Shown here: positions 6,371-9,327 of the stretch, one piece after another
How positions within the stretch are numbered: the first letter of the stretch is position 1
Layout of the letters: the number at the start of each line of letters is the position of its first letter
Virus record (IMG/VR): IMGVR_UViG_2703718769_000016
Span: 1 to 19,413 of that record
DNA: 19,413 nt
Strand: one strand, 5' to 3'
Source of the DNA: a virus
Lineage: Duplodnaviria > Heunggongvirae > Uroviricota > Caudoviricetes
Position numbers and translations under genes: made by a program
Notes under the pieces: generated by a model
What the model was told of the DNA's origin: nothing
Seen by the model: the letters and a program-made list of their open reading frames with translations, nothing else
Database searches by the model: none

Positions 6371-7015
6371 CTAGAGGCTGAACTGAACACCTTTTGCTAC
6401 AGCAACGATGTTACATTCCGGTGTAAGTAAGGATGATTGATAGCGTGGGTTAAGGGGGGCTAAGTACACGAGCTTTCCATCAATAACTAATTTTTTTATA
6501 GTCATGGATGGTTCGTTTGTGAGTGGATCTGGGACTATTACTGCGACGATGCTACCATTTTTATATTTTTCGCCAGGCCTCATGATCACTGTGGCTCCAA
6601 CTGGAATGCTTGGGGATCCTGATGGATTGTGCATAGTATCATCAGGCATTGAAACGGCAAAATCTCCCTCCTTGACATCAAAGAATGTGGTGATCCTGTC
6701 GACATTTCCCATAGTTTTCTCTCCTTTTAATATTAGGAAAGAAATCGCTTCTCCCCAAGAAAGGTATGGGATTTGGGTACCTGGATTTTTCTGCACAAGG
6801 GATGATTCAGGTGATGATACTCCATACAGGAGATAGGACTCAGTAGTGCCTAGTGCTAGGGCTAATTTACTAAGAGCTTTGCTACCTGGTTCGTTTAGAT
6901 CTTTCTCCCAGTATCCTATTGTTACCCCAGTTACGCCAGAAAGCTTGCCAAGTTCAACTTGGGTCAGACCTTTGTCTTTTCTGAGTTTCTTAAGCCTAAT
7001 GCCAAGGCTTTCCAT
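6371..7015 (-). CDS. CI-like prophage repressor (N-terminal HTH_XRE, C-terminal S24 LexA-like peptidase domain)
   Basis: N-terminal LTQVELGKLSGVTGVTIGYWEKD helix-turn-helix; C-terminal domain with S24-type fold features; SD GGGAGA upstream of ATG at 7015; divergent from a Cro-like gene. Confidence 0.85.
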   Translation of the reverse strand: MESLGIRLKKLRKDKGLTQVELGKLSGVTGVTIGYWEKDLNEPGSKALSKLALALGTTESYLLYGVSSPESSLVQKNPGTQIPYLSWGEAISFLILKGEKTMGNVDRITTFFDVKEGDFAVSMPDDTMHNPSGSPSIPVGATVIMRPGEKYKNGSIVAVIVPDPLTNEPSMTIKKLVIDGKLVYLAPLNPRYQSSLLTPECNIVAVAKGVQFSL

Positions 7016-7114: not shown

Positions 7115-7342
7115 ATGCGAGTTGATGAACTTGTCCAGTTTTTTGGTTCTGTCCAAAGAGTCGCTGATTTTTATGGGGTAACCCGAGAAGCTATATACAT
7201 GTGGCGTAAGCGTCCCGGCGAAATAGTTCCCAAGGGGAGGGCTGCTGAAGCAGTTGCATACTCCAAGGGAAAATTATCGTTGAACCCAGAACTTTACAAA
7301 AAGAAGGATAACACCTCGAACGAAAGGAAAAATGATTCATGA
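7115..7342 (+). CDS. Cro-like HTH regulator (YdaS family)
   Basis: 75-aa protein with HTH (FGSVQRVADFYGVTREAIYMWRKR); divergently transcribed from the CI-like repressor; stop overlaps the next gene's ATG (ATGA). Confidence 0.7.
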   Translation: MRVDELVQFFGSVQRVADFYGVTREAIYMWRKRPGEIVPKGRAAEAVAYSKGKLSLNPELYKKKDNTSNERKNDS

Positions 7343-7776
7343 AAATCAAACATGAGCACATCCGCATGGCGATGAATGCGTGGCTGCTTTATCCGAGGGT
7401 AGGGCGCAAAAAAATCGCTGATGATATAGCGACAGCATATTTTGAGCTTGAAATGACTTATCCACCAATGCATGACACCTCTACGACAGAGGGTATTGGA
7501 TTGAACATACAAAATATTTTTCGCTGGCTTGAAAAGGATACGCCTGATGCTGTTGAAAAAATTCAGGCACTAATTCCGGCTATCCTGACTGTTCTTCCGC
7601 GTGAACTGCGTTATCACCTCAGTATTTTTGACACTGTTGAGCGCCGTGCATTACTGGCGGCGCAGGAAGCGTTAAGTACGGCAATTGATGCACATGATGA
7701 TGCAGTCCAGGCCGTTTACCGGAAAGCGTATTTCAGCGACGGCGGGTCATCCGGCGAGTCTGTTGTGGTGCATTGA
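7339..7776 (+). CDS. YdaT-like (CII-analogue) early regulatory protein
   Basis: 145-aa ORF translationally coupled to the cro-like gene; family assignment by position and recalled similarity only. Confidence 0.5.
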   Translation: MKIKHEHIRMAMNAWLLYPRVGRKKIADDIATAYFELEMTYPPMHDTSTTEGIGLNIQNIFRWLEKDTPDAVEKIQALIPAILTVLPRELRYHLSIFDTVERRALLAAQEALSTAIDAHDDAVQAVYRKAYFSDGGSSGESVVVH

Positions 7777-7862: not shown

Positions 7863-8873
7863 ATGGCCGCATTACCATACATGCAACTTTACATAGCTGA
7901 TTACCTGGCGGACACCATGCATTTGTCCGCAGAGGAGCACGGTGCGTATTTGTTGCTGATGTTCAATTACTGGCAAACAGGGAAGCCAATACCCAAAAAC
8001 AGACTGGCAAAAATCGCCCGTCTGACTAACGAGCGATGGGCTGATGTTGAACCATCCTTGCGGGAGTTTTTTTGCGATAACGGCGACGAATGGGTGCATC
8101 TTCGGGTTGAGGAAGATCTGGTATCAGTCAGGGAAAAATTAACCAAAAAATCAGCCGCCGGAAAAGCATCTGTTCAAGCCAGAAGAAGCAGAAAGGAAGC
8201 ATATGTTCAAACAAAACAAGAGAGAGATTTAACAGGTGTTCAAACAAATGTTGGTGTTGTGTTTGAACATGACGCAAACACAAAAGCAACTAATAAAGAT
8301 ACAGATCTAAAAGAATTAAACCCCACACATAACGCGCGCATGCGCGAGAGTGCTCCAACCGGTGAGTCGAATGGTGCGTCGTTGCAGACAGCCGAACCTG
8401 AATACCTGGACGGCCTGAGCGAACCGATCGGGAAATTTTCGATGACCACTGTCTGGCAGCCGTCGCCGGATTTTCGACAACGGGCAGCAGTGTGGGGTAT
8501 GGCTCTGCCTGAGCCGGAATTTACACCTGCTGAGCTTGCTGCATTCCGGGATTACTGGATGGCGGAGGGGAAGGTTTTCACGCAGGTTCAGTGGGAGCAG
8601 AAATTTGCCCGCCACGTGCAGCACGTCAGGGCACAGGTAAAACCAGTCAGCAAGGGGGTAAGCCATGCAGCATCAGGTGGCACGGCATCACGGGCAGTTC
8701 AGAAAATCCGGGCAGCACGAGAACAGTGGGAACGTGAAAACGGATTTATCAGCAACGGAAACGGCCTGGAAGCTGTGGGAACTTATGGGGGAGGTTTATT
8801 CAAACCGCTGGACTCAGAAGAACGGGGCCGCACCTTCGAAGCTCTGGATTGCCCAGATTGGCGCGATGACTGA
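7863..8873 (+). CDS. Replication initiation protein, DUF1376 (YdaU-like) N-domain with DnaT-like C-terminal region
   Basis: SD AAGGTGAGG then ATG at 7863; N-terminus MAALPYMQLYIADYLADTMHLSAEEHGAYLLLMFNYW typical of DUF1376; central low-complexity linker whose DNA carries iteron-like repeats. Confidence 0.7.
   Translation: MAALPYMQLYIADYLADTMHLSAEEHGAYLLLMFNYWQTGKPIPKNRLAKIARLTNERWADVEPSLREFFCDNGDEWVHLRVEEDLVSVREKLTKKSAAGKASVQARRSRKEAYVQTKQERDLTGVQTNVGVVFEHDANTKATNKDTDLKELNPTHNARMRESAPTGESNGASLQTAEPEYLDGLSEPIGKFSMTTVWQPSPDFRQRAAVWGMALPEPEFTPAELAAFRDYWMAEGKVFTQVQWEQKFARHVQHVRAQVKPVSKGVSHAASGGTASRAVQKIRAAREQWERENGFISNGNGLEAVGTYGGGLFKPLDSEERGRTFEALDCPDWRDD
8170..8275. repeat. Iteron-like repeats (TGTTCAAAC core), candidate replication origin inside the initiator gene
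   Basis: tgttcaagc at 8172, tgttcaaacaaa at 8204 and 8238 (direct, 32-34 bp spacing), inverted copy tgtttgaaca at 8262; flanked by an A-rich stretch. Confidence 0.35.
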
Positions 8874-9327
8874 ACAGCAAATCCGGCTGGTCTGCCGTCA
8901 GTGCATGGACCGCTGCCGGGCGGGTGAAACGTGGCCCCCGGACCTGGCTGAGTTTGTTGCGCTGATTTCGGAGAGTGGGGCAAATCCATTTGGTCTTACG
9001 GTGGATGCCGTGATGGAGGAGTACCGTCGCTGGCGCAATGAATCCTGGCGGTACGACGGGAGTGATAAATACCCGTGGCCACAGCCTGTGCTGTACCACA
9101 TTTGCCTCGAGATGCGTTCAAAGGGGATTGAGCGCCAGATGACCGAAGGGGAGTTAAAACGGCTTGTGGAAAGGCAGCTGACGAAATGGGCAAAGCATGT
9201 TGGTAATGGCCTCAGTGTTCCGCCAGTCCGGCGACAACTGGCAGCACCCAAACGCCCGCCAGGGCCAACGCCAATTGAATTGCTGAAACAGGAATATGAG
9301 CGCCGGAAGGCGGCCGGTTTTGTCTGA
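8665..9327 (+). CDS. Lambda P-like replication protein (helicase loader family); start uncertain
   Basis: C-terminal two-thirds aligns by eye to lambda P ([14 protein letters not shown] / PFLPSPGQFVAWC; YPWPQP / YPWKSN). Strong SD AAGGGGG before ATG 8665 but that start overlaps the upstream gene by 208 nt; alternatives are ATG 8785 and ATG 8866 (ATGACTGA overlap with the upstream stop). Confidence 0.6.

Follow-up and report, generated by a model that had tools for sequence, protein, structure and literature searches.

A conserved out-of-frame overlap between the genes for a replication initiator and a putative P-like helicase loader in a Rac-like lambdoid replication module

In phage lambda, the gene for the origin-binding initiator O is followed directly, on the same strand, by the gene for the helicase loader P, and the two genes (O, 38686-39585; P, 39582-40283) overlap by only 4 nt. 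In the classical view, the C-terminal part of O contacts P. Lambda P consists of domain I (residues 1-29/40, a disordered N-terminal lasso) and domains II, III and IV; its N-terminal lassos have been speculated to engage O, whose C-terminal domain is invisible in cryo-electron microscopy maps of DnaB-P (PMC12661323). Initiation is abolished when lambda P lacks residues 9-86, and an O' read-through product is mentioned, in a passage citing Yates 1977, as extending 35 or 62 codons into P (PMC3640518). Among 715 overlaps of more than 60 bp between co-directional genes in prokaryotic genomes none was found to be real, and the longest real overlap was 56 bp (PMC2478687). Here we describe a 19,413-nt stretch of Caudoviricetes DNA (IMG/VR record IMGVR_UViG_2703718769_000016; the whole stretch is referred to as the window) with Rac-like lambdoid replication genes, in which the gene for a replication initiator and the following gene for a P-like putative helicase loader share 209 nt in different frames.

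The two genes are related to the lambda O-P pair, with the same order of origin-binding initiator gene and helicase-loader gene on one strand, and the loader resembles lambda P in its PF06992 relationship, overall length and domain order. In contrast to the 4-nt junction of lambda, the window initiator reads about 69 codons into P, and its tail has no detectable similarity to the C-terminal region of lambda O. Long overlaps are already known in phages. Like the window, known long overlapping genes encode two proteins in one DNA, with disordered or weakly constrained segments opposite constrained ones; the phage Rz/Rz1 and phiX174 genes are embedded genes, not tail-to-head overlaps of replication partners. 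Literature searches found no description of this initiator-loader overlap.

The initiator gene, read in frame 0, likely starts at ATG 7863, with GGTGAGG just before it, and the P frame (+1) is open from ATG 8665 (Table 1). A preliminary description of the window had recognised the overlap at a size of 208 nt; the overlap stands, and its size is corrected to 209 nt (8665-8873) with the stop codon included. The explanations offered at that time were an initiator extended by a frameshift or indel, or a loader starting later, at ATG 8785 or 8866. A conserved dual-coding overlap, an option absent from that description, best fits the evidence. Taken as a whole, the best explanation, which we hold with a probability of roughly 0.8, is a conserved out-of-frame overlap with independent initiation of P, driven by its own Shine-Dalgarno (SD) sequence. 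The architecture and the start signal are conserved, and selection in the overlap is frame-specific.

A scan of species-representative genomes yielded 31 further Enterobacterales loci (P identity 45-91%), which were pooled with closer relatives. All loci with an intact upstream initiator open reading frame (ORF), of 300-394 aa, form a set of 34 including the window (P identity 46-99%). Throughout this set the initiator frame is one position behind the P frame, and the overlap, counted from the first P-frame ATG, is 149-227 nt long. The exceptions are degraded copies: a frameshift disrupts L034, stop codons interrupt L038, and what is left in L030 and L035 are prophage remnants that abut host genes. 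L035 had been considered as a natural non-overlapping P gene, and was rejected as a remnant next to host genes. Searches of phage genomes by tblastn identified a loader ORF overlapping a lambda-O-like gene in Vibrio phages D67 and D65 (L041 and L042) and in a related metagenomic contig. Loaders of this type match P residues 14-131 at about 33% identity, and their overlaps are 200-218 nt long, with the same frame relation as in the window. As expected of a dual-coding pair, both frames are open in 34 of 34 intact loci and in the Vibrio-phage-type loci.

Alignment of homologues in each frame, a check suggested by the preliminary description, revealed that initiators normally end at the 8873 equivalent with a conserved tail, which speaks against an extension by frameshift or indel, and that P-frame conservation reaches upstream of 8866. 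More generally, the overlap could be an artefact, arising from a sequencing indel, a frameshift-extended initiator or a decaying pseudogene. Errors of this sort account for most of the long co-directional overlaps annotated in prokaryotic genomes (PMC2478687), and the four degenerate copies listed above do exist, but the same two open frames recur in many genera and in the Vibrio-phage-type loci, the indel that distinguishes the window from L001-L003 within the overlap preserves the frame of both genes, and both frames carry signatures of selection. We regard an artefact as extremely improbable. On these comparative grounds the overlap is real and old, being shared by E. coli prophages and Vibrio phages, and is not an error of the window sequence.

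A conserved start signal for the downstream gene lies inside the upstream gene, a further property of a dual-coding pair. In the window, AAGGGGG ends 6 nt ahead of ATG 8665. An SD-like core (GGAGG, GAGG or GGGG) is present 3-9 nt ahead of the first P-frame ATG in 31 of the 34 loci, against a background of 0.0026 per codon for an SD with an ATG in the P frame elsewhere in the initiator genes; the earlier choice of ATG 8665, with its strong SD, as the best P start is thereby borne out. In all 34 loci the initiator residue over the P ATG is H, N, D or Y, the residues that NAT codons encode, and it is followed by A, V, G or E, whose codons all begin with G. The restriction to NAT codons indicates that it is the ATG, not the initiator residue, that is kept. 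The first P-frame ATG sits 32-42 codons before the position of Met 41, and in L021, L013, L033 and L029 there is no other start codon between it and codon 41.

The long form of P was compared with known families and structures. The ORF matches Pfam PF06992 (Phage_lambda_P) over residues 58-187 with 58.7 bits (cut-off 26), and phrog_109 ('P-like helicase loader') with an E-value of 1.1e-62, residues 11-219 covering profile positions 15-235 of 236. A profile search of the PDB found lambda P chains (1.2e-6). BLASTP aligned the long P with lambda P over residues 85-192 only, in the C-terminal half (24% identity), so profile and fold comparisons were required to back the by-eye alignment to lambda P in the preliminary description. 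When the 220-aa protein was modelled with AlphaFold2 (30 sequences; pLDDT 71, moderate confidence), residues 1-27 came out disordered (pLDDT 40-48) and helices began at residue 28 (nt 8746). The top Foldseek matches of this model are lambda P chains 9oa1_Z/Y/V; full-length lambda P (9oa1_Z) aligns over 215 columns with E = 8.7e-6 and probability 1.0, the TM score being only 0.43 because the domain arrangement is flexible. Similarity to P proteins thus extends upstream of 8866, as the by-eye alignment had suggested. By profile and fold, P is a putative helicase loader of the lambda P family. Like lambda P (PDB 9oa1, 8v9t, 8v9s), it is predicted to have a disordered N-terminal leader, helical domains and a C-terminal helix, and the modelled leader is comparable to the domain I lasso; unlike lambda P, the first 209 nt of its gene are shared with the initiator.

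The two later start codons were weighed against ATG 8665. A loader starting at ATG 8785 (Met 41) would leave a real overlap of 89 nt, with the upstream 40 codons open through initiator composition. Met 41 is nearly invariant, and annotators have used it in Citrobacter, Klebsiella and Salmonella (180-181 aa forms). Moreover, with an unchanged initiator protein, 60-90% of synonymous recodings at most loci leave 8665-8745 open in the P frame; the openness of this segment had looked significant against average stop density, and was dropped as a signal because it lost force in this comparison. On the other hand, codon 41 is CTG in L026, L029 and L041, the P-frame motif AWxLWE is conserved upstream of Met 41, P-frame periodicity runs from about 8746, and a start at Met 41 would halve the modelled helix 28-45. 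Only a weak GGGA precedes 8785, while about 40 codons upstream there is the conserved SD and ATG with the NAT-restricted initiator residue. A start at Met 41 is unlikely.

A start at ATG 8866, coupled to the initiator stop through ATGACTGA, would give a loader of 153 aa, possibly as a second, shorter isoform. This is the RefSeq model, called by PGAP and by phage annotators, and junctions of the ATGA type are what is usually seen, lambda O/P and phiV10 being examples. However, ATG 8866 has no SD, and codon 68 is Met in 88% of the aligned sequences and non-Met in about 12%. The window and L001-L003 have the same P-frame residues at 28-67, a stretch over which the initiator frame varies, the periodicity described above begins well before codon 68, and in distant loci the initiator stops elsewhere, with 53-125 nt of overlap past codon 41. 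What corresponds to lambda P domain I and to about half of domain II would also be missing from the 153-aa form, and lambda P with residues 9-86 deleted is non-functional (PMC3640518). We consider this start highly improbable. Termination-reinitiation coupling was likewise rejected for P, since the initiator stop lies 209 nt downstream of the supported start and only the unsupported ATG 8866 would fit. The proposal of a later start at 8785 or 8866 is accordingly not upheld.

Selection in the two frames was examined through the codon phases of 22 loci aligned at the nucleotide level. Up to about 8740 conservation is lowest at the initiator wobble position; from about 8740-8750 onward it is lowest at the P wobble position. 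The frame switch falls where the modelled P fold begins (residue 28 = nt 8746) and where a conserved initiator segment ends, at which a low-confidence model passes from helix to disorder. In the 5' part of the overlap, an initiator motif is conserved while the P frame, here the variable N-terminal leader (residues 1-27), varies. In the 3' part, the P frame encodes the first helices of the domain-II-like fold and the initiator frame a Gly-rich acidic tail. If the P protein is kept unchanged, synonymous recoding at a locus preserves an open initiator frame across the 3' part in only about 25% of cases. Of 17 lineage representatives, 13, 15 and 15 have G as the wobble base of P codons 46, 51 and 52, respectively (p = 6e-5, 5e-7 and 5e-7, binomial values that are optimistic as the lineages are related), and through this G the initiator motif LFEPLDxEE(R/W)G retains GAA (Glu). 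At P residue 51 itself Q, V, T, A and I all occur, and AAA is otherwise the predominant Lys codon. Purifying selection is thus seen in both frames, as expected of dual coding, with the constraint partitioned between 8665-8745 and 8746-8873.

Several points weigh against the dual-coding overlap with initiation at ATG 8665. L025, L026 and L029 have no recognisable SD, and that of L041 is weak. Met 41 could be a secondary start of P, and in view of the 60-90% chance openness, the open P frame over 8665-8745 is weak evidence when taken alone. The relatedness of the lineages tempers the wobble bias, and much of the apparent conservation of the initiator tail (LD, DW/DR) is forced by conserved P residues. 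Taken over the whole 3' part, the rise in wobble conservation is no more than marginal (p = 0.08 with Met and Trp columns left out), indicating that initiator-frame selection there is local, involving few codons. Finally, the support comes from sequence, from which we infer that both products are made in vivo with these boundaries. The case for the long P is built on the start signal, the pattern of alternative starts, the AWxLWE motif, the model and the profiles, not on openness.

In the proposed mechanism, the initiator would be translated through to its TGA at 8873, and P would be translated independently from ATG 8665 by means of the strong SD embedded in the initiator coding sequence. The overlap would be tolerated through the partition of constraint: over the first ~80 nt, a conserved, probably helical initiator segment would lie opposite the disordered P leader, and over the last ~125 nt, the start of the P domain-II-like fold would lie opposite a loosely constrained acidic initiator tail in which a few Glu residues are kept.

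No significant RNA structure was found around the P start (8620-8720, folding z = 0.09). A search for slippery heptamers of the type X_XXY_YYZ found none in the P frame in 14 loci, none conserved in the initiator frame and none in the window. Regulated unmasking of the P start and frameshifting are therefore unsupported. Programmed frameshifting in the overlap would produce an initiator-P fusion (+1) or a chimera of P leader and initiator tail (-1). It finds some favour in phrog_15931 (482 positions), a family that both proteins match, the initiator (window 7863-8870) at positions 107-347 and P (window 8665-9324) at 279-482, and the SD-like AGGGGG within coding sequence recalls the prfB +1 site. 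Besides the lack of a conserved heptamer and of significant RNA structure, there is no in-frame stop or obvious hungry codon after the SD, and the database fusions P0099 and P0030 are single sequences; frameshifting is very improbable. In phrog_15931, both overlap frames are mapped onto the same columns, and this family probably contains fused or frameshifted initiator-P proteins. The two single-member fusions are of the types DUF1376+P (P0099, 333 aa) and P+DUF1627 (P0030, 291 aa).

The conserved overlap with independent P initiation was next considered in the light of mosaicism. The same initiator tail was found on six core types, namely DUF1376+DnaT, HTH_36+DnaT, an unassigned N-terminus+DnaT, HTH_36/DnaD_N without DnaT, DUF1376 without DnaT, and Phage_rep_O. 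The tail is carried by at least six unrelated initiator cores, which suggests that the tail and the 5' end of the loader gene travel as one module. Phages TL-2011b and phiV10 have the same DnaT domain followed by a P-family gene, but differ in having another, longer P subtype (258-261 aa; TL-2011b 258) and a short unrelated tail, with overlaps of 29 nt in TL-2011b and 4 nt in phiV10. DNA similarity to TL-2011b-type phages covers 8315-8617 only and stops just upstream of the P SD and ATG, and 8617/8618 marks a mosaic joint, formed by recombination, that links the DnaT domain with the module of tail and loader.

The Vibrio phages D67 and D65 have overlaps of 212 and 200 nt, with the frame relation of the window and a tail ending in ...QEE(R/W)G...D.D, whereas the C-terminal half of their loader is unrelated to the window P at the sequence level. 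The P proteins of phi80 and HK225, conversely, match only P residues 92-220. Since the Vibrio match covers residues 14-131 only and the phi80/HK225 match 92-220 only, the loader itself is mosaic, and possibly consists of an initiator-facing half and a DnaB-facing half. By these comparisons, what stays together is the initiator tail with the loader's N-terminal half. The phage-derived VdhL loaders of Vibrionaceae also adjoin O-like genes, and the word 'overlap' is absent from the main text of the paper describing them (PMC11087808). The D67/D65 loaders are not equated with VdhL; a search for chromosomal Vibrio relatives of VdhL returned mostly phage-sized contigs.

These patterns suggest that, through the overlap, the initiator tail and the loader's N-terminal half stay linked as one portable module that can be joined to many origin-binding cores. 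The tail is a candidate loader-recruiting element, an assignment based on the co-inheritance pattern, the classical contact between the O C-terminus and P, and the published speculation on the lassos. More tentatively, and on balance doubtfully, the overlap may encode both sides of an initiator-loader handshake, in which the helix and acidic tail of the initiator bind the P lasso or domain II written over them. If so, swaps of origin-binding cores or of DnaB-binding C-terminal halves could not part cognate partners. The handshake would also explain the presence of one tail on at least six unrelated cores, the change of tail with the change of P subtype in TL-2011b, and the sharing of just the N-terminal half and the tail between enterobacterial and Vibrio loaders.

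Table 1 Positions of genes, start signals and overlap segments in the window
Feature	Position	Strand	Remarks
LexA-type repressor	6371-7015	minus	
cro-like gene	7115-7342		
YdaT-family gene	7339-7776		
Replication initiator gene, 336 aa	7863..8873	+	ORF to TGA 8871-8873, frame 0
DnaT-domain DNA common to TL-2011b-type phages	8315..8617	+	
Shine-Dalgarno AAGGGGG for P-like gene	8652..8658	+	within initiator codons Lys-Gly-Val
P-like helicase loader gene (putative), long form, 220 aa	8665..9327	+	TGA 9325-9327, frame +1
Dual-coding overlap, 209 nt	8665..8873	+	initiator tail in frame 0; P residues 1-69 in frame +1
5' overlap part, initiator frame dominant	8665..8745	+	
3' overlap part, P frame dominant	8746..8873	+	
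Alternative ATG, P codon 41	8785..8787	+	
Initiator acidic motif LF(K/E)PLDxEE(R/W)G	8796..8828	+	same bases as P motif (V/I)YSNRWxxKNG
ATGACTGA: ATG of P codon 68 over initiator stop	8866..8873	+	

The initiator contains a DUF1376 domain (residues 5-86; Pfam PF07120, 7.7e-26) and a DnaT DNA-binding domain (residues 192-258, nt 8436-8636; Pfam PF17948, 2.6e-17), the combination that characterises a phage replication initiator family, and residues 259-336 form the C-terminal tail. Its match to the NCBIfam DnaT profile is under the cut-off of that profile, and phrog_3992 ('primosomal protein') matches over the full length. A structure model of the tail region is poor (pLDDT 50, 6 sequences); in it, the conserved segment at about 8691-8738 is a helix (model residues 94-109), followed by model residues 110-153 with pLDDT 30-38. 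The acidic tail is apparently disordered, its Glu codons being kept via biased P wobble bases. A database search with the 89-aa initiator tail returned E. coli fragments only, from which the distribution of the tail cannot be read; the tail model was built on these fragments and is accordingly shallow. A likeness between the end of lambda O (...LDLTNTDWIYGVDL) and that of the window initiator (...LDCPDWRDD) was dropped, since the window residues follow largely from the P residues W-I-A-Q-I-G.

Between the DUF1376 and DnaT domains, at 8160-8300, the GC content of the initiator gene falls to 0.33, and TGTTCAAACA-type repeats occur in both orientations. They include a 16-nt pair with 94% identity (8203-8218 and 8255-8270) and a 10-nt pair with 100% identity (8237-8246 and 8260-8269). 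This segment looks like an iteron/origin region inside the initiator gene, resembling ori-lambda within O. Downstream of P, a DUF1627 ORF is open from ATG 9296 and would overlap the P end by 32 nt; in relatives this gene is annotated from ATG 9362, with GGGAGGA ahead of it. The choice between 9296 and 9362 is probably an ordinary matter of start selection.

The region is matched in 1321 of 5426 complete E. coli genomes. In the three E. coli RefSeq records checked, 'replication protein P' is 462 nt long and encodes 153 aa from the 8866 equivalent, and phage records place the P start at the 8866 equivalent or later. Called P lengths among database proteins cluster at 220-223, 177-181, 153 and 140 aa, so the P start is called inconsistently, and the usual choices minimise the overlap. 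Measured against the long form, the loader would be cut by 67 residues in these E. coli records and by 40 in other genera. An opposite annotation failure was observed in the Vibrio-type metagenomic contigs L045 (1900-2694) and L046, where the long loader is called and the initiator gene is not; the uncalled O-like initiator frame encodes 271 aa and overlaps the loader by 200 nt.

The initiator-loader overlap is a well-supported exception to the rule that co-directional overlaps longer than about 60 bp in prokaryotic annotations are errors (PMC2478687), and it exposes a systematic annotation error in a gene that roughly one E. coli genome in four carries. It also illustrates a route by which such an overlap could be stable, in which the weakly constrained, probably disordered segment of each protein lies opposite the constrained segment of the other. 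A portable initiator tail that always occurs with one loader subtype is a candidate for the element by which an O-type initiator recruits a P-type loader.

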